A stretch of 64,000 bases of DNA, taken from NCBI GenBank assembly GCA_047967505.1, contig CM106538.1; one strand, written 5' to 3'. This document shows, piece after piece, positions 6,419 through 62,260 of the stretch. Each line of letters begins with the position of its first letter. Position 1 is the stretch's first letter. A program made the translations under genes and the position numbers. Under the pieces are notes generated by a model. It did no database searches, was not told the DNA's origin, and worked only from the letters and a program-made list of their open reading frames with translations. This DNA comes from Dipteris shenzhenensis (Eukaryota).

Positions 6419-6612
6419 AAGCATGTGCTATACCTTCCCTATTGGCCCTCACAAATAACCCCACCACATTTATAACATTGCTAAAGCCATAAGGTAAGTA
6501 ATTTAAAAACTGCTAAGCATGTGCTATATCTTCCCTATTGGCCCTCACAAATAATCCCACCACATTTATAACATTGCTAAAGCCATAAGGTAAGTAATTT
6601 AAAAACTGCTAA
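6419..6612. repeat. Tandem duplication, 2 x 96 bp
   Basis: AAGCATGTGCTATA...AAAAACTGCT begins at 6419 and again at 6515, with two substitutions seen. Confidence 0.95.
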
Positions 6613-12105: not shown

Positions 12106-15100
12106 AATAGAAGGGGTTTTCAAATTAAACTACCAAATTTTTAGCATATTACAAAAGTATACTTATAGAAGGGTTCCTAAATGGGATTTAAAACAAAACC
12201 CATACATTTGTATAGAGAAAAGGGGTTGCTTTAAAGGCCTTAAATTTATAGATACTGGGGGTTTAAATAATACGCCTTGAATGCACATGCTATGTAGGTG
12301 AGCTTGGGGTAGTGTTTTTATCATAGAGTTAGTTATCTCTGGGGATTGATGCTTTCTAGGAGTGGGAGCCCAACAAACACCATGAATAAGTGTGTGTGTG
12401 TGTGTGTGTGTGTCTGTACGTACGTACATGCATACATATGTACATACACTACAACCATTGGCTTCATTTTCGACACTTTTCTCGACACAATGTACATTAA
12501 ATTTTTTTTCCAAAAACTCCTAAGTCGATATTAGCCTCAATATAAATGCTGATATTACAGTCGAAAAAAGTGCTACTATATCCATCAATAAATCAATTTT
12601 TGATGCTAATATGGATGGAAATATTGACTCTGGGAACCAGATTTCAATGCTTATATGGACAAAAATATTGACGTTGTCGGATGTTGTCAGGGAATTTGAA
12701 GCTATATTGACAAATATATTGATGCTTTAGATTTGGGGCAAAATTTTTTAAGGGCAGATTAGGGCTTATTAAGGCCCTAATCTGCCCTTCTATAAAAGGT
12801 ATGTATTACAGTGTACTAGCCAATTTATATGTTTACATTCATTTTGAGTATAAAAGTTTCTATATTCTCTTTCATAATTCAGTACAAAATCTCATGTTTC
12901 CGTGAGTACTCTCTAGCCCTTTCTATATCCGACTACTCTAGCCTAGTCACTACTATTGTCCTGATCGTTTCTCCTACCCTCCTCATCACTCCCACCCCGC
13001 TCGTCATCCTCCCCTCCTCCTCTTTCCTCTCCAACTTTGGCATCCCCTTGGTGAGCTTGTTGCAAGAACTCATCTCCATCATCCTATTCTAGAAGCACAC
13101 GTGTCAGAGGTTAGTATATCCTAGTTGTTCAATTTGAGCATTTGAACAAAATGGGTATAGTAAGTTCTTACATTCAACAAGGGAACAAATTCCCCACTCA
13201 CCTCAAGTAAGTCGAACAAGGCTTGCGTATAATTGTCATATGCATACAAGTACTCCTTCGTGCACTATCTGCCCATTTTCATTTCTTGACATTATAAGCA
13301 TGCATGTTAATTTCATGATTTACCCCAAGCATTCCCAAATTACATGCAAAAATAAGTGAAAGAATAGGTACTTACAAAAAAATGATAAAATCTACCCTTC
13401 CTGCCTCAGCCTAGGTGGGATTGTCCCACTTTACTCTTCCTTGCAGCAGTTGCCTTCTTTTGCTGATCGTACTTCTGTGGAGTCTTGAGTTCTTTCTTTA
13501 CAATCTTTGAATCATAGTCATGGACCCATGCAAGCTTTGACTCCCTTGCCTTTGATTTTTTGTGGATTTGGTCTTTCCACGATTTCAGTAAGGCATGCAT
13601 CTTGTTCAACATCGACCTGGAGTCAAACTCTAGGTTCTCACTAGGCACTAGGAACTGCTTCCTCAGTGACTTCAAAATATAATCTTTTTTTTTTTTTGGG
13701 CTACTTTCAAAAATCCATGACGACCCTCTTGAATTCAAAATGGCAAAGGCCATGCATGCGATTAACTAACCGCTTACATCTATCATCCATAATTATTTGA
13801 TACTCCTTACTAACTGAATAGGGGAGGTTGGTGGATGTTTGGGAGTCTACTTGAGAACCCTCTGTGGCACTCGTTGTACTAGAGACTGAGTGTCTGCATT
13901 GATGCCTCTTGCTCTCTTTCCCACGAGGTCCTCCTTGAGTGTTTCCTTGGGAGATCTCAAAAGAGGTCGGTGGCATTGCCTCTCCTCTTCAAACTCACGA
14001 AGGACTCTTCCTCTCGTTCGGATCAAGATGCGTGAGTAGTTTATGCGCCTTCTCCATACTACTACTAGTGGTAGTATCATTAGAGACTCTTTCTACCTCC
14101 TCCACTAGATCCTTCACTTGCCATCCTTCACGGAGGTAGAAGAGAGTTTATTTAGAAGAAGGATAAGGAAAACGAGAAAAGAGGAGAGATTTTATTTAAA
14201 TTTTAGAATGCATGAAGATTTCAATAGGCATGTTTTCTAGCAAGATGGGGGTTCAAGGGATCCATCCACTTCAACATTGTGTTCCCTAGAAAACCTCACC
14301 CCTAGAAAATATGTAATGAAAACAATGGAGAAGAGAGGAAGGGTGTAAAGCTTATACTTGTGCATAAATCTTGTGCATGAGTGTAAGCTTTATGCATATG
14401 CAAGAAGCTTTTGCTTATGCATGAAGAGCATGAGCTTAACGTATATAGAAATTGAAGGGAAAATAGAAGAGGGGGGAGGGGAGAAAGGGTCATATGCCCA
14501 CTCACTTGCTAAACATAAGGCATTGCAAGTGGCCAATTTGAAAGATCAAATTCATGCAAGAGAGAGGAGAGATAGACAGACTTACCTCAAAATGTAAAGT
14601 GATGGCTATGAGGTGGTTCTCTCTTGTAACAAAAGCAAGCCTAAACACACAATTCAACATAAGAGGTAAGGGAGGAAAGGGGAGAGAGAAGGAAGAGGGG
14701 GGCGGAGGGAAGGGAGGGAAGAGAATGGAGAAGGAAAGGGGAGACGTAGAGAAAGAGTGGAAAGGGAGGAAAGGGAGGAAAGGGGAGAGAGAAGAAAGGG
14801 AAGAGAGGAAGGGGAAAGAGGGAGGAAAGGGGAGAGAGGGAAATAAAAGGGAGTGAGGGGAGGAAAAGGGAGAGAGGAAGGGGAAAAAGGGAGGAAAGAG
14901 GAGAGATCAAAAGAGAGAGGAAGAGAGGAAGGGGAAAAGGGAGGAAAGAGGAGAGATCAAAAGGGAGTGAGGGAGAGAAAAGCTCGGGGGGGTCACTATG
15001 TATAAACCCTCTATACCACGTGCGTTCAAGGCATATTTCTAAAATCCCTTATCTGTAAATTTTTCATTAATAAAATGTACCCCTTTTCTATACAAATCTG

Positions 15101-32870: not shown

Positions 32871-33449
32871 GATTGCCAGTGTTAACGGGCTTCAAGACCT
32901 CACAATGAAACTGGAGTTTGGGCATGTAACTGATCGAGAGTGAGAGCTTGCAATCGGATGTATGCCATATGTAAGGTTTTGACCTTTCTGCTTAATTTGG
33001 GTATTTATGATCACACTTGCTACAAAATGCATCCTCATTGTTTTAATCATGTTCTTTTGTAGTACAAAAAGTATAGTGCATTGTGGTCACATGGATGGCA
33101 TTTTCATGTGGAACGCATCGATTCAAGGAGAGTTACATATGATTGTGGAGTCATGCCTAACTTTGTACAATATAGCCGAGCAAGTGCTTCTGATACCAAT
33201 CTTCTCTCCTTGTAGTTAGATTATTGTGGGACCATACGTGACATCTATGAAGTTGATTTTAAACAATTTAGTAATTTTATTCTTGATATCAAATGGTTTA
33301 GAGCTATCTACAATGGTCCCAATGCTATATTCAGGAGAGACAGATGTGGTTTCTTTGCCATTGACCGATGAAAGTGATACCTTTGTTCTTCCAGGTAGGT
33401 ACACAATAATCTTAGGTAGGGGGACTGGTATTTTCAGTCTTCTCAAGGG

Positions 33450-53010: not shown

Positions 53011-53620
53011 TGCGTGAACAAATTGTATTTTAATACATAGTTACATACACACATACCTATGTATATATTTTGCACGTAAAGATTGGCAAGGTGAGGATCA
53101 AAGAGCATGCATGGATAGAGGATATGCATGCACTTTGATGTTGAAGAGTGGGCATAATTTTGAAGGATGGATTACTTTTGATTATGATTAGATTTTTGGA
53201 TTACTTAGGATTATAATTGGCTATCTCTCTTAGTGCTAATAATCAATGGGGTTATAAAAAGTTATCCATTACCCTATACGTTAAATAAGCCATCTTTAAT
53301 AGTTGTATTCAATTTAATTTATTGCAATTGATAGTGTTAGTGGCATACTCTCTCTGCTAGAATATATGGTTGCCTTTGATTCTTCTCAAAGATTTTGTCT
53401 TATGACATTGAGCTATGTTCCTAATTATTATCTTCCACTTTGTAGTATCTCTGACTTTGCGAGTGTAGTAGTGCCTACACATATTGTTGTTATTGTTTGT
53501 TGCTCCACTACAAGATTCTATTTCAGTATAGTATTAGAGAATCAATTGGTGTATCGAGCTCTTGGCTCTTCTTTGTGGCAAGCATTGTGGATTATGTAAT
53601 AGATATCTTAGTGAAGCATG

Positions 53621-53654
<34 letters not shown>

Positions 53655-55112
53655 CAAATTTAATACTCCCATTAATATAGAACTATATAGTTAATCCCAT
53701 CATTAGGATTAAGTGATGAAAAATCCATAAAATGGATAAAATAGAGGTTAACCTTCACATAAAGAGAATCGAATGAAATCTTGTTATACCAGTAAATTAT
53801 TTCATACAACACCTGAAATGTGTCTCTCGATACCAAATATGGAATACAAAGTTAAAATGCTGAATCTTTCAAGTAATCCGAGATCTAATGTCAGGGTCAA
53901 CTTACCTACCACCATCCCAGAGAAACTAAGTGTGAGAACACAAAAGCTTCTAATGGTGGGTAGACAAGTAATGCCTGTCTACCTTGGCTTATTATTGCTC
54001 TTACCAAAGATCCAAATATCCATCTAGATTCAAGAGTTAAAAGTGACATATATGCTAAGTAATAGGTAAGCATACGTAGTCAATAATAAGAATGTACACC
54101 TTTACCATTGGGGGATCAATCACAATTTATTGCTGTCCCACTTAAATATACTTAAATTTATTTAAGTATATTGCTGTCCCACTTAAATTTATTACTCAGG
54201 TAGCATCTCTAGGTCAGAAAAAGACATACCATTAACCTACTAATAAAGTTAGACTATACTAATGACATTGTATAATTATGCTTTAACAACCTACAGTAAG
54301 AATTCCAAAGAAATCAGTAAAGGATAACTTTAATATAGAAGGAATGCATTTCCTAAGATCATAAAGAGAACACATTCCAATAGGGCAGGACTAATCAAGG
54401 TAAACAATTGGTTAATAGAAAATAATTCTTTAATTCAATTTTAAACAAAAGCATGAAGTGTGCGGGGTACGCCTCCAATTTAACAACTATAAGAAGTATA
54501 AGACATTATTTTTAGAGAAGATAAATTCCATAAATGCCTCCCCAAAAGTATCACAACAACACAAAGTAACTATAGACGTGCTTGGTAGACGTGCAAAATA
54601 GCGAGCACGTCTATAGGCGTTGCTTGAGTAGAGGAAGTACGGGCACATCTAAAAGTGCGTCTAACAACTCGTCTATTTGCGCATTTAAATAACGCATCTA
54701 TTTGCGCATTTAAGTTGAGAAAATACGGGCCCATCTAACATCGTGTTTATCAGCGCATCTATTTGCACATGTATTAACACATCTATTTGCGCGTCTAAAT
54801 TGAGAAAATATTGGCCCGTCTAACGTAGCGTTTATCAACGCGTCTATTAGCGCATGTATTAGCATGTTTATATGCACGGTTATATGCACGTTTACACTGA
54901 GAATCAGACGCTTATATAGACACAAACTAGAGAATACAGAAAGTGAGACTTTGGTATACATCATTGCTTTCCAAACATTGCCCATGATTACCAAAGCACA
55001 TAATTTTAACAAAAACATCAATGCTTTTTTGCAAGCCCACATATACAAGAATTAAGTGAGGTGAGGAGAATGAGACAATATGTAAAATAGTTTTGCCAAT
55101 ATCAATGAGGGG

Positions 55113-58100
55113 CTATGGTTCAATCTCAACCTCAATGAGATCAACCCTTGCCAAACTATCTACTTCAAAATCCAAACAAGTGTTTAGATTTACAAGTACA
55201 TTCAATCCACTACTACTTGTGTTACTCATGTGCTCATTGAAATCAGCATCACTAATGGTAGGCTCATCTTCATGGGTAATGGCCTCAATATCTGTATCTC
55301 CTATCTCATGATCATCCTCCTCTCTCGTATCACGGTCATCATCACGTCCATGGCCATGATCATCCTCCATACGCCCCATGTTAGTAAATGTACTATACAT
55401 CACTTTGAAATGTGGCATAATAGGTATGACATGCCACCATCGGGTATTATCCACCATTGGTTGATAGACAACCTAATTCAAACACAAATACAATCATGTT
55501 ATTTTTCTTGCATCAAATATTTAAAAGTGAAGATTTTTATATGTGTGCACAGTACCTGTTCACATTGTTGCAGTAGTACTAGTGTGTCCTTCTTACTTTG
55601 CGAAAACTTTGTGGAGTCAATAGTTACAAAGCCACTTACATGGCATTTGATTGTTGCATTAGGGCCTCTTTCCACCATGTCCTTAAACCACTTTACATCC
55701 AAAACATACACAAAGAAGCGTCGAAAGTCAAGCTTAATAATATCTTGGATTATGCCACAATAATCATCCATGGCTCCATTGGCTCCCTCAAAGCTAGCAA
55801 TGACGCCACAATCTTGTGTGTTTCTCTTATCATCAATCCGTTGGGTTCGAAAATGCTTGCCCTCACACCATATAGCATTGAACATAGTGCACTACACCAA
55901 GAAAAAATCAATTAAATAAGTAATCTAAATTATTGAAAGCTCTTAACTTATGCATAACATTCTATATACCAACCTTGCTCATGCATCCCCAAGCATACTC
56001 CCATTCTTCCATTGTGATATGCATCCCCTTGTCTTTCTCTGCTTTCTCCATTTCATCAAGTAGCCAATCCACATGAATATCCTTTGGAAGTGCTCTTAGA
56101 TACTGAGGGTATGGCACAAGAGATCTGTGGTGTGTACGAAAGAGGGCCCTTTCTTCTTGTCTTCTTGCCTTTGCATCCTCGTATCTTGTCACCCATCTTT
56201 TCATCACGTCACTATTAAGCACGCAAAAGAGGTTGATACTATTATGCAACTCCGTGTCTATTACTTTGTTGCGTCCTTTCCCTTGAGGCACAATAGAGGT
56301 CATCCTTAGGTCTTCATCATCTCTCCATAATCGTGGGAGAGAGCTATCCACATAGACAAGAAACTCAAAAATATATACAAGTGACTCTTGTACCAACCAA
56401 CCCTTGGCCATGCTACCTTCAGGTCTTGCATCTTATCTCATGAAGCCCTTCAAGGTCTTCATGAAGCGCTCGAGGAAGAACAACCACCGTGCATGTATAG
56501 TACCACATATAGCAATCTCATCCACCAAATGCACTATAAGATGTAGTTGGCTTGTGAGAATAGAACGTGGAAATGTCTCCTCCACTAAACAAACCGCCTC
56601 CACTGACATAACTCGAGCATTCAAGCGTGGTGGGATCTATTTCCTTTGAGCTCACATACCTAGGAATGAAAAAGTATAGCATATCAGCAATATGCATTCA
56701 AACTTGCATGGAGCATTGATACACATCATATTTGGTATCATGTAAAGTACCTCACAAGCTCACCCATCTTGTAAATACAATCTTTCACGTCCTTCGATGC
56801 ACTACGTGAAATGCTAGTAGGTAGTATGAACTGAACCTGTGAGGAGGTGGTTGATTAGTTGCTTATAATTATTCACTCACAAATTTGGAAGGAAAAAGAT
56901 TTTATGCACACAAAATACTTACTTGGAGCATCTTGTGCCAATCATGAGATTTCAAGACATATAATTGCTCTACACCTCTTTTCTTGCTCTTTGTAAAGGC
57001 TCCCTTCAAACACCTCATGCATCCAGTGGGAGTACGAATTATAGTAATAGCACACTTCACTGTTGCCATCTCTAGCTTTGATAACATCCACGGTGTATGA
57101 CGTAAAAAAACATGCCCATTTGGTCTCTCTTGTCGCCAAGCTTCATGCATCCTCCCTGTGGTACATAGATCCTCCCTTATGCCTGCGGAATCTCGTGTCC
57201 CATTCAAATGTTCCCAAATGGTAGATGCCACATTCTTGAAGATATGCATGGGATCAAGCAGGTGATTGATCTTGAGGTGGGACCAATATGGTAAACGATA
57301 AAAGATGGAGTATCTAAACAAAATAAAGTGTTAGCGGGTAATCTTTATTTCCAGCCAATATAGCACACAATAGTTACAAACCCTTACCGGCTCATGCCAA
57401 GTGGTGGAGGAGTCGTGGAACCATCCCAAATTCTCATCCAATCTCTTGCGGTGAGTGATTGTGGGAGGACTTCGTTCCAAGGGGCAACATATCTAGGATG
57501 ATCACGTGGGAGAAATCAATGGTGATTCTCATAGATGACCTTATTCAATGCATCTGCCCATGAGGCAACTAGCAAAGGACCACAAACAGGACATGCATGG
57601 TAACCCGATGTAGTGAGACCTGAATAATAGACGCAATTAAGAGTTGAAGGTGGGTTTAGGATGCCACATCCTTTGCCTATTCATAATTAGAAGTGCAATG
57701 CTTACCTAAATACTCACCATAGCCTGGGAAGTCATGCATTGTCCACATCAAGATTACTTTGCAGTTGAAGTCTCGTGATGAGGGAGGCCTACTCACATCA
57801 TGCACCTCGATACCTCTCCAAAGTATATCTAGCTCGTCAATCAAAGGCTCCAAATAAACATCAGGGTTTTTGACTTTATGTTTCCCTGGAATTAGAAGGG
57901 ACAGCATAACATGTCCTTGCTTAATAGCCATAGAGGGTGGAAGATTATAATTCACCAATATCACTGGCCATACATTGTAAGACGTGCTTTTGAGACCAAA
58001 TGGGTTCACACCGTCCATACCCAATCCAAGTCTCAAGTTCCTAGGTTCTTCCTTGAAGCTTGGCCATGTGTCTTCAATATGCTTCCACGCAGGAGAATAT

Positions 58101-59076
58101 GTTGGATGCGAGGAATTATGGGAAAATGTCGCAGAACCTTATGAGGCACGTCCAAAGTTTTGAGATCTGCTCAATATCTTGCCTCTCCACAAGTAGGACA
58201 CTCTCTTGCATCCTTATGTAGTCCACGAAACAAAACGCAATCATTGACACATGCATGGATGCACTTGTAATCTAATCCTCCAAGAGAGGTCACATGTTGC
58301 CTTGCCATATCTCTTGAGGTCGGTAATTTATTCTCCCTTAGAAGCATTTTACACAATCGCCTACACGTGAAGACCATAAATGAGGAAAAGCATTCGAGTA
58401 ATTGACCCACTAGCATAATTCACCATGTTTGCAAAATAGACTTTAAAGCTTACTTGAGTAATGCATTCAAACTTGCATTGCTCCATCCATAGATGGTTTG
58501 CAAGTTTAGTAACTCAAGGGAGGCATGTAGAACAGAGAATGTGCACCCCTCTAACAGTGGAGTCGATGCTGTAGTAAAAAGATCATCCTGCTCCATGCTA
58601 TCATCCCTCCCTTGATGAACATATAAATCCCGCACCATATCATCAAACACCTCCTCCATGGCTTCATGAGATAATGGGGGAGGGCTACTATCACCATCAC
58701 TCCATGCATCCGTAACGGCCCTCTTGAAGATCCCACCTCATATCGCCGATGCTTCAGCGCCTCACGGTGAGCATAGGGCAACATATGTGGGTGTGGCATT
58801 GCATCCTGTATCAAATTAAAACGGGATCATAACTCAAACATATGAACACCCATACGTATCTCAATCAACCTTAACTTACAAACCCTTACCCTGTTTACGG
58901 TCGCATCCCATTCTCCATACTTTGAGATGTGATTGAGTGTAATCCTGCATGCACGATACATATTTCCTCAACATCGATCACACATACATTTGATTTTTTG
59001 CTCCAACCACATTTCGCGATGGTGGATAAGAGGTATTCATCCTCACTAGAGCTACTTGTTGAAGATGAAGAAATCC
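55113..59076 (-). pseudogene. CACTA transposase (TnpD/Tnp2-type), intron-rich, disrupted
   Basis: IHACVNDCVLF..CPTCGEARY, RLGLGMDGVNPF, WPVILVNYNLPP, DVYLEPLIDEL, WTMHDFPGY, HLLDPMHIFKNV, LKSHDWH, QLHLIVHL..RWLFFLERFM, DYCGIIQDI..KWF. In-frame stops and a deletion near 58100. Confidence 0.93.
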
Positions 59077-59940
59077 TACAAACAAACAACCCAAAAAAAT
59101 TTGCTCTTCTTCAAATGTTTAATTTTAAACTCTGTGGCGCATCTAAAGGTGTGTCTAAAAGCGCGTCTGCTTGATCTATGGTACACATCTAAAAGCGCAT
59201 CTATAGACACGTCTAAAACCACGTCTACTCTATGTCTTTACACGCGCAAATAGACGCACTTTTAGACGTGCTTATAGATGCGGCTTTAAACCTGCTTTTA
59301 GCGCGCTCGCTTTGCTTTTCTTGACATTACTTATACTTCGCATGGCTTGCTTGTTTCCTTATTAGTAGATCCATAGTTTCGATGCTTAAGAGGAAGGCAC
59401 CCACACTTACTTCCGAGCTTACACTTAAGAGGAAGGCACCCACACTTACTTCTAAGCTTAAAGGAAGGAGAGGAGGGTGAACAAGGAGGAGAAGCAACTT
59501 TGAAAAAGGAGAAGAACCTTCCATACCTCTATCCAAGGTAAGTCTTTTTGTAGTTGGTATTTTTTGGAAGTTTGCTCTCTTTGGATTTGTACTTTCTCGT
59601 ATCTAAAAAATGCATGATCTGGGTATCAATGCATGATCTGAGTATCAGTGTCACGTTTGTGTGTCGGGCGCAATGTCCTTTTCTACTTTTTAGAAAAGTC
59701 TGTCTGTCGGAGCGCGTCTATAGGTGCATCCTAGAGCACGTCTAAACGCGCGTCTACAAGTGCGTCTAAATGCGCGTCTAGTCTGTTTACAGACACAGGC
59801 AGCTACGTTTATAAATGCATCGTTACACGCAAAAATAGATGCGTTGATCAGGCACATCTATAGACGTGCTCCGACAGTAATCCTTCCCCTTTGTTCTCAG
59901 CTCATCAGTAATAGATTTTTTTTCTTTTTTTCAGTTCATC

Positions 59941-61407
59941 ATGAGGCCAGGAAGCGCTTCCAACTCACCTGATCCCCGAGAGTCTATTTTTAGGGACTTA
60001 TATAATCTTTTAGGGCACCCTCCTAGTCCTACGGAGTTATACGGGTATATGACGGGTACCATAAACACCCCCCAGGAGTCGGCACTACAAACTCCAAACG
60101 GTGCACCCCACACTAGCTGAGATCACCCCAGTGGAGTCAGCACAGCCCAGCCGGCTACACAGTACAGGCCCATCTCCCATGTCGTCTCATGCCCCTTTCC
60201 CCATGTCGTCTTATGTCCCTTCTACCATTCCATCTTACGCCCTTCCCCCATGCCGTCTGGAGGTCCTTCTGTCTCGCAGAGCCGTCGACGTACTCCTGTG
60301 CAATCGAGACTCAGTTCTCCAGCTACGACTGGTCAGCGTAGTCCCGTGCAGTCTCCAACTACGAGTGGCCAGCGTATGAGCTCAACACGACATGGTAGTA
60401 GGCGTAGTAGCAAGGAGAGCAGTGGGGGATGCATGGCATAGTGCTTTGGGAGGGGTGGCGGTGGGGACGATGATGATTCAAATGATTTAGACGTGCCTTC
60501 GGGTGATGGTACGATATTCTATGACATCACTCAGACAGGAGGCATCTTAATGGATGCACGGGGGAAGGACATCATGGCCTTCATGCACTCTATAATTGCT
60601 AACAATTACAGAGATTGCTTTATCCACTTCAAAGACCAGCCAAAGAGGTTGGCTAATGAGACCCTCGCTGCTCTTCGCTCTAGGTATCCTAACCCCCCCA
60701 ATCGCCAGTTCACAGATAAATGGGCCAAAAGTCAAAGATTGTTACGATACTTGGTAATAAAAGATCTTCGCTTAAGAGGCAGGCATTAGTGAAGCTTGCC
60801 AGGATCGAGGGAGGTCAACCACCAAGGGGCCCACCCCACATCGCTCACAAGCGTGAGTGGAAGAAAGCAATGAAGTCAGCGAGGGAGGACCCCAGTCTGC
60901 AGCACGTGGAGGCACGAAGGATCCAAATGGAGGAATATGGAAGCGTGCATTTTGGAGCAGAGGGTGTTGAATCATTGGAGGCCCAATCTGTAGGTATCGA
61001 TCTCAAATTATATTGCTTATGTAGTTTATTAGGAGGTTGTTTCTTTGTACTAATCCCTCTGCAAATTGTGTCGTCTTGCAGCTTGAGATCGTAGGCAGAT
61101 ACCCTACTCCTGTGGAGATAGCCTACCACCGCCACCATCGCAGAGGAGATACATGGAGGCACTTCTATGATGACGGGTTGATTACTGAGGAGCAGTATAT
61201 CCGGGCTACTAGAGCGGCCCTCGAGGTATTTGAAAGTAATTAAATCATGCCAATATTATAAGTAAAGATTTGATTTTTCATACATTGACATATGTTATCC
61301 CTTGTTTACAGGCCCGTGCACAAGACGACGAGGAAGACGAGGAAGGAGGCACAGAAGGGAGCGCAGAAGGAAGCATGGAAGGGAGCCTAGAAGGAAGCGA
61401 GGATTAG
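59941..61407 (+). pseudogene. TnpA/Ptta-like second CACTA gene, divergent from the transposase
   Basis: Ser/Pro-rich N-terminus, helical core, HFGAEG...|LEIVGRYPTPVE motif across a GT-AG intron (60990-61081), and an acidic last exon. Two stops and one frameshift. Confidence 0.7.
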
Positions 61408-62148
61408 TCGTAGAAGTAGTGCTAGCTACTCTTTTTTGTACTTAAAGCCACTAGCTTGGCTTCGTGCCTGTTATATATACACTCCTCTTATTTTTTGTAC
61501 TTGAAGCCACATGACGTGGCTTAGCTTCCTTATTTTTTGTACTTGAAGCCACATGATGTGGCTTAGCTTCATGCTATATGTACGTACAAGCACTTTTTGA
61601 GCTTTCAATTTTATTGCATTTTGGACTTGTAATGTTTTATTTGGAATTGTAATTAAAATGCGGTTGGCTGTAAGAATTGAATTAGCCAATGTGGAAATGG
61701 GATTCTTGTAACTATATAGCATACACAACATACACAGCATTCTGTAAATTTAAAAAAAAATATTATAAAGCGCGTCTATCAATGCATTTATAAATGCGTC
61801 TGTCTATTGACAAGCGTCTATTTTTGCATCTACAAATGCGTTTATATAAGCATCTATTTTGGCATTTATATGCGCATCTATACGCGCGTGTGTGTCCTAT
61901 ATAGATGCGCTATTAGACGCAGGTCTCCAGATGTGCAAATAGACGTGTCCGTAATTTTTTTATTTAGTTCAGCAAATGTGTTTGTGTGCGCATCTATGGA
62001 TGCTTTGTCTTGTTGTGTATGTTTTCATGTGCCATGTGTGTCAAAGACCATTAAACATTTATTTAAAGAAATATAACCATCCATTGGTAGCACATAGATG
62101 ACAAAAGCTTAAGGGATAAGTTCATATAGTTAAAGAATCCATACAAAC

Positions 62149-62260
62149 ATAGACCTAGAGAACATTAATTAGAAGCAAGAACACCATAGAAAAATGACAA
62201 TTTCATAGACCTAGAGAACATTAATTAGAAGCAAGAACATCATAGAAAATTGATAATTTT
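62149..62260. repeat. Tandem duplication, 2 x 56 bp
   Basis: ATAGACCTAGAGAACATTAATTAGAAGCAAGAACA(C/T)CATAGAAAA occurs twice. Confidence 0.9.

Follow-up and report, generated by a model that had tools for sequence, protein, structure and literature searches.

The window analyzed here is the whole 64-kb stretch of contig CM106538.1, and positions 54552-62017 of it are occupied by a single transposable element of 7,466 bp with one pair of terminal inverted repeats (TIRs) and one target-site duplication (TSD). The element carries two genes, a CACTA-type transposase gene on the minus strand and a second gene, here called ORF2, on the plus strand. The 5' ends of the two coding regions are about 865 bp apart (59075 on the minus strand, 59941 on the plus strand). 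The initial annotation had placed the two genes head to head within a single TIR/TSD pair, and the coordinates, strands and borders bear this out. The features of the element, in order of position, are as follows.

54549-54551: left TSD, TAT, identical to 62018-62020.
54552-54566, plus strand: left TIR, CACAACAACACAAAG, located by pattern search and arm comparison.
54567-54920: left subterminal array of GCRCRTCTA-type motifs (fold z -3.75 over 54552-54730).
55113-59075, minus strand: transposase gene, CACTA-type, with many short introns, a pseudogene here (Pfam, tblastn, in-frame stops and contig joints).
59130-59300: internal-left palindromic cluster, inside the predicted 5' untranslated region (5'-UTR) intron of the transposase gene.
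59321-59700: motif-free centre, putative divergent promoter and putative non-coding first exons.
59538-59934, plus strand: predicted 5'-UTR intron of ORF2, 397 nt, with donor AAG/GTAAGT and acceptor TTTTTTTCAG/TTCATCATG.
59700-59880: internal-right palindromic cluster, with 23-nt arms at 59704-59726 and 59855-59877.
59941-61407, plus strand: ORF2, with a conserved helical domain at about 60500-60989 and exons at 61082-61226 and 61312-61407.
61740-62002: right subterminal array (fold z -5.79 over 61760-61950).
62003-62017, minus strand: right TIR, CACAACAAGACAAAG (plus strand CTTTGTCTTGTTGTG), located by pattern search and arm comparison.
62018-62020: right TSD, TAT, identical to the left TSD.

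The TIRs are 15 nt long with arms equal at 14/15 positions (consensus CACAACAA[C/G]ACAAAG), and likeness between the arms extends to about 54581, where 24/30 positions are equal. A search for the TIR pattern in and around the element, allowing up to 3 mismatches, found only the two terminal copies and none inside it. Only 5 inverted 15-mer pairs in the whole window (at least 14/15 positions equal, 1-15 kb apart) have equal 3-bp flanks, and 3/5 are TA simple repeats. The ends were also compared with contigs of public sequencing runs. Twenty such runs match the window, each sharing at most 0.17 of words and none of them listed as RNA; X2, X3, X13 and X14 denote contigs of public runs mapped to the window, and every statement about contigs applies to the contigs listed. 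An X14 contig, from another organism, matches from exactly 54552 and diverges from the window before that position. X3 repeat depth falls to 0 past 62043, near the right end.

A CACT/AGTG-anchored TIR search yielded no convincing pair because the termini read CACAA...TTGTG rather than CACTA. The element thus departs from the 5'-CACTA...TAGTG-3' termini of the CACTA superfamily, and only CAC/GTG is kept. It does possess the 3-bp target-site duplication of the CACTA / En-Spm (CMC) superfamily (TAT on both sides) and the subterminal motif arrays of CACTA elements, two of its four motif clusters being terminal. Because the transposase, and not the termini, fits CACTA, the element was placed in the superfamily as a form with non-canonical termini.

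Open reading frame (ORF) pieces of the transposase extend on the minus strand from about 59075 to a stop at 55113-55115. A Pfam scan of 15 ORF pieces (9 minus, 6 plus) returned only two matches, Transposase_21 (tnp2, PF02992) at 57677-58138 (E 2.1e-46) and DUF4218 (PF13960) at 56433-56636 (E 1.7e-13), so that both domains expected of the superfamily are present. Full-length CACTA transposases align piecewise along 58737-55550 by tblastn, and the cysteine-rich N-terminus has a weak tblastn match at 59000-58896. The two domain matches on minus-strand pieces, together with the position of the stop, agree with the strand given to the transposase in the initial annotation. Among named proteins, the nearest are hypothetical ones from the fern Adiantum nelumboides, with 60-65% identity along the query, and for this reason the host of the window, whose DNA is plant-like overall, is treated here as probably fern-like. 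ENA/Logan relatives reach 77% identity, and flowering-plant proteins about 45-56%. CT..AC joints in X13 reveal two introns toward the 3' end, 55471-55553 and 55892-55973.

The transposase gene is a pseudogene in this copy. Stops interrupt homologous stretches, for example at 56435 (relative to both P0006 and P0023), 57518 and 58173, and further stops at 58452, 58422, 56740, 56728 and 56904 may fall in introns. The dinucleotide TC after 56620, lacking here, is present in most copies (X3 32,096/50,862; X13 365/373; X14 4.61/4.61).

Three side observations concern the transposase. X13, whose contigs are guessed to be RNA, has a depth of 140-407 over 55101-56702 versus 10-33 over 56703-59105, a 5- to 40-fold excess over the 3' third of the gene; a truncated or derived transcript may be far commoner than the full gene. 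X3 contigs join distant points of the gene (55189 to 57168, 55361 to 57168, 57171 to 58729, 57255 to 58729 and 57255 to 58825), a pattern expected of non-autonomous family members with internal deletions. A second CACTA remnant lies far from the element at 33063-33365 on the plus strand and resembles residues 906-1002 of P0023 (45% identity, E 1e-19), which form the C-terminal part of a fern-type CACTA transposase.

ORF2 starts with the ATG at 59941, ends with the stop at 61405-61407 and contains GT..AG introns at 60990-61081 and 61227-61311. The intron at 60990-61081 is supported by an X13 joint from 60987 to 61082 (two letters between), and the homolog P0126 is spliced at the same intron, continuing from 60998 to 61085-61138. 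An 87-residue piece (60729-60989) was used in a HMMER search and retrieved 7 relatives among 1,835,955,588 representatives (E 7e-19 to 1.5e-4). All 7 are from ENA or Logan contigs and 0 are from annotated proteomes, which did yield the transposase. Relatives P0128 (330 aa) and P0131 (384 aa) combine a short N-terminal region, a linker rich in Ser, Pro and Arg, and the helical domain. This domain is conserved in the ORF2 family over about 170 residues and ends with ..HFGSGG..S..AEF. Immediately after ..AEF, at the position of the intron in the window, 5/10 aligned relatives (P0124, P0127, P0128, P0130 and P0131) have unrelated residues; P0122 and P0123 go on past it (FVSIV.. and FVSIA..), and P0121 and P0125 stop before it. 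This pattern suggests that an intron position after ..AEF is common to the ORF2 family.

X3 depth over ORF2 positions 60441-60974 is 131,755-142,334, compared with 36,289-181,539 over the transposase bins 55101-59105. Because its intron appears conserved, a spliced contig occurs in another organism and it is repeated like the transposase, ORF2 is a real, transposon-borne family gene and not a one-off captured sequence. The plus-strand gene that the initial annotation had reported inside the element at 59941 to 61407 stands, its repeat depth matching that of the transposase.

Like the transposase gene, ORF2 is interrupted in this copy. In-frame stops occur at 60118 (TGA) and 60439 (TAG). Two bases, 60727-60728, are extra relative to most copies; they are left out in X2 (201.9/255.1), X3 (127,164/131,036) and X13 (3.85/7.8), and 8/10 homologs split at 60726-60735/60729, the other 2 starting downstream. 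An additional C follows 60239 in one X2 contig (84.8/84.8 depth), equivalent to one base missing here. A gene model in which an intron at 60684-60778 joins two frames was dropped since most copies are without the two bases at 60727; an X13 contig colinear over 60462-60779 and the 8/10 split homologs also speak against this intron. Other searches added little to the family. A homolog search with 60442-60789 at the 'longer' setting scored 0 of 173 candidates, and one with alignment A3 gave 3 matches, only 1 of them new (P0132). Alignment A2 produced 38 pattern matches in JGI metagenomes and 0 relatives, and the ESM Atlas gave nothing at 0.9 or above for ORF2, the best value being 0.85 in fungal clusters.

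The plus-strand gene had initially been called TnpA-like. This label holds only by position and presumed role and should be dropped. PF03004 (Transposase_24) gave no match with 6 plus-strand pieces at E<=0.01, with 5 pieces at E<=10 or with 7 ORF2 homologs at E<=1, and neither the pieces nor the homologs match any other Pfam family. The best Pfam result on the homologs was a sub-threshold HTH_70 on P0124 (E 9.7e-4, 19.7 bits versus a cutoff of 27). Alignment A3 was compared by hhalign with 3 Brassicaceae PF03004 domains, giving a probability of 0.2% and E 0.27 with both profiles shallow. The AlphaFold2 (AF2) model of P0126 is all-helical with a mean predicted local distance difference test (pLDDT) score of 59.5. 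Foldseek of the ORF2 AF2 model against the PDB gave 0 matches at E<=1e-3. VIA-align (wide) reached a best Z of 6.0, within the common range for helical models, with mixed unrelated helical chains, some of which are DNA-binding. According to a passage of PMC13547354, TnpA-like domains are confined to flowering plants, and a fern-like genome with another accessory gene agrees with this.

The motif GCRYRTYTA has 31 matches in the 64 kb. The element contains 26 of them, and 25/26 fall in four clusters totaling 1,068 bp (counted over 54552-54920, 59100-59320, 59701-59900 and 61740-62017); as the motif was defined from the same data, this count is a contrast and no independent test. The clusters share 12-27-nt matches with one another in both orientations, and the centre shares none. 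What is new is that the GCRCRTCTA subterminal motif also builds two strong palindromic clusters flanking the centre, each lying in what is predicted to be a 5'-UTR intron. On the minus strand the internal-left cluster folds into a long hairpin of -68.7 kcal/mol (z -7.57), and the internal-right cluster reaches -78 kcal/mol (z -6.98); 0/200 shuffles were as good in either case. The terminal arrays fold more weakly than the internal clusters. The centre, about 380 bp, does not stand out in folding (z -0.37). A 39-bp tandem duplication lies in it at 59385-59460, and the centre is itself repeated, with an X3 depth of 31,274 in bin 59373-59639. The left subterminal array has a tandem duplication of its own at 54690-54859, with 85-bp units at 84% identity; an X14 contig diverges after 54776, suggesting a copy with one 85-bp unit fewer.

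Four splice signals, read from sequence only, predict a 5'-UTR intron for each gene. The plus strand has a consensus donor AAG/GTAAGT at 59537/59538 and a pyrimidine-rich acceptor ...TTTTTCAG/TTCATCATG at 59934/59935. The donor word AAGGTAAGT occurs 3 times in the window versus 0.48 expected. The minus strand has GTAAGT at 59410 and 59449, inside the 39-bp duplication, and an acceptor ..TTTGTTTGTAG/G at 59077/59075. The signals bracket both internal clusters, and the predicted introns would remove the right cluster from the plus-strand transcript and the left cluster from the minus-strand transcript. None of the listed contig joints crosses any of the four signals. Bins 59106-59372 and 59640-59906 are nearly uncovered in X13 and X14; their low cover was rejected as evidence of introns, as no listed joint crosses them. 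The only other exact AAGGTAAGT words in the window, at 6491-6499 and 6587-6595 on the plus strand, are 96 bp apart, suggesting a local duplication that includes a splice donor.

Maize En/Spm resembles the element in its tnp2/Transposase_21 transposase, its 3-bp target duplication and its subterminal arrays of a motif of about 12 nt in both orientations. Copies of the En/Spm motif also adjoin its promoter. The element differs from En/Spm in that its two genes are on opposite strands, the second gene is without PF03004 and the termini are CACAA instead of CACTA. Expression of the En/Spm type, with both products from the same strand and promoter, does not match what is seen here: the coding strands are opposite, the X13 transposase introns reading CT..AC and the ORF2 intron at 60990-61081 reading GT..AG on the plus strand. 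Excerpts of two reports describe maize En/Spm as one unit read from the 5' end, producing TnpA and TnpD by alternative splicing (10.1101/2024.04.02.587720, PMC8195511), and one of them describes contiguous transcription of tnpD-tnpA in lettuce (PMC8195511). Arabidopsis EN/SPM families are single-gene or have two genes head to tail, according to passages of PMC13547354. EN/SPM2, 5, 6 and 9 share with the present element a transposase and an accessory protein encoded by separate, non-overlapping genes in one element, but here the genes are head to head. Among the Brassicaceae proteins scanned, 3/4 have Transposase_21 and Transposase_24 on one predicted polypeptide, which places both domains on one strand. 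The Brassicaceae polypeptides and the Arabidopsis families are consistent with the view, stated in the initial annotation, that flowering-plant relatives have co-oriented genes.

Divergent host gene pairs with a bidirectional promoter provide another comparison, as the coding starts in the element are on opposite strands and about 865 bp apart. They differ in that here the terminal motif of the transposon itself forms two palindromic arrays between the genes. Another cut-and-paste element, maize MuDR (Mutator), has mudrA and mudrB on opposite strands. It belongs to another superfamily, and its genes converge under the control of the terminal repeats instead of diverging from the centre. Full-text literature searches, read as passages, brought up no paper on CACTA elements with head-to-head genes or on the structure of CACTAs in ferns; an element with opposed genes may have been drawn earlier in a figure, a supplement or Repbase/TREP.

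Taken together, we consider it somewhat more probable than an even chance that the element is a decayed copy of a high-copy CACTA/En-Spm (CMC) transposon of a fern-like genome, with CACAA termini, two divergent genes, an accessory gene unrelated to TnpA, and expression from the centre outward. The divergent orientation would then hold throughout the family. Both genes would be transcribed outward from start sites in the motif-free centre of about 380 bp, and each would start with a short first exon that is non-coding, followed by an intron in the 5' UTR. A palindromic cluster of the same GCRCRTCTA motif, about 9-12 nt, that makes up the subterminal arrays would lie in each of these introns. 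In En/Spm, TnpA binds subterminal motifs of 12 bp, which extend over the promoter as well. By analogy, the ORF2 protein may be a motif-binding factor that gathers both ends for the transposase, and it may also sit beside both promoters and feed back on expression, as TnpA does at the En/Spm promoter. Motif palindromes around the control region would let the ORF2 protein or the transposase act on both promoters, and overlapping first exons would also allow antisense RNA. A more extended version, possible but rather doubtful in our estimate, is that a fern CACTA lineage swapped TnpA for an unrelated helical accessory protein and that its centre, flanked by intronic palindromic motif arrays, drives both genes outward. 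One protein would then both assemble the ends and set both transcripts, or the intronic hairpins would feed small-RNA silencing.

Several observations weigh against outward expression from the centre and a motif-binding ORF2 protein. Both genes are broken here, which the initial annotation had not noted; the copy is dead and can express neither protein. ORF2 has no DNA-binding domain recognizable by AF2, Foldseek or VIA-align, and BLASTP of its N-terminal 59 codons (59941-60117) against P0128 gave E 8.3, showing no homology to the relatives. The minus-strand donors read GAA/GTAAGT and are weaker than consensus. X3 covers the two internal clusters to depths of only 62 and 444, and none of the listed contigs bridges 59106-59906. 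The missing bridge also suits a head-to-head layout peculiar to this copy, which would have arisen by internal inversion in a co-oriented element or by 5'-to-5' fusion of a transposase-bearing and an ORF2-bearing element of one family with loss of the inner termini. Two elements lying side by side, each with two subterminal regions, would likewise account for the four motif clusters. The left array recurs in inverted form in the internal-left cluster (54646-54689 versus 59237-59280, 80% complementary; 54643-54663 versus 59251-59271, 95% complementary), and TnpA-only EN/SPM families are described for Arabidopsis in the available portions of PMC13547354. A rearranged copy is nevertheless unlikely. 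Even with up to 3 mismatches allowed, no TIR-like sequence occurs around 59300 or 59700, the centre is high-copy in X3, and the splice signals are symmetric about it. The one matching TSD at the outer ends indicates that the whole unit inserted as one piece.

Positions 59130-59880 could instead be a short non-autonomous relative nested between the genes, in which case the internal clusters would say nothing about promoters. The segment does look like a miniature element, with a motif array at either end and no motif in between, and X3 depth in the middle bin (31,274) differs from that in the neighboring 5' gene bins (76,238 and 7,198). We consider such a nested insertion improbable, as its borders have neither a TIR at up to 3 mismatches nor a 3-bp duplication, and the predicted donor/acceptor pairs draw on the centre as well as on the gene starts. 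Equally improbable is that ORF2 is a captured host gene or unrelated passenger, as in Pack-CACTA elements, and not an accessory transposition gene. In favor of capture, ORF2 resembles neither TnpA/Transposase_24 nor any Pfam family, and grapevine CACTAs capture host fragments, also in opposite orientation, as excerpts of PMC2528002 report. Against capture, only 7 relatives were found in 1.84 billion representatives, none from annotated plant proteomes; ORF2 is as repeated in X3 as the transposase; and it is no fragment but a complete gene of several exons, with upstream signals of its own. A central bidirectional promoter, and with it an undescribed expression architecture as the initial annotation proposed, is a reasonable though hypothetical reading of the locus, one that rests on a single decayed copy.

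Three further repeats lie outside the element. A (GT)n microsatellite occupies 53620-53655, about 900 bp to its left, and a 56-bp tandem duplication (95% identity) occupies 62148-62259, about 130 bp outside its right end. An inverted 15-nt pair, TTCTTTCTTTAC[A/C]AT at 13490 and 22722 (14/15 equal, GAG flanks, 9.2 kb apart), may be another TIR element.

Work on CACTA transposons rests almost wholly on flowering plants, in which TnpA acts as the accessory protein and the two products are read in the same direction. An element with CACAA termini and an ORF2 without a Pfam domain is missed by annotation pipelines that demand CACTA and Transposase_24. If the proposed organization is correct, the two-protein logic of a transposase and an end-binding factor would have been kept while the genes and their control layout were replaced. 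The family would then offer a compact natural test case for transposon self-regulation from the centre.

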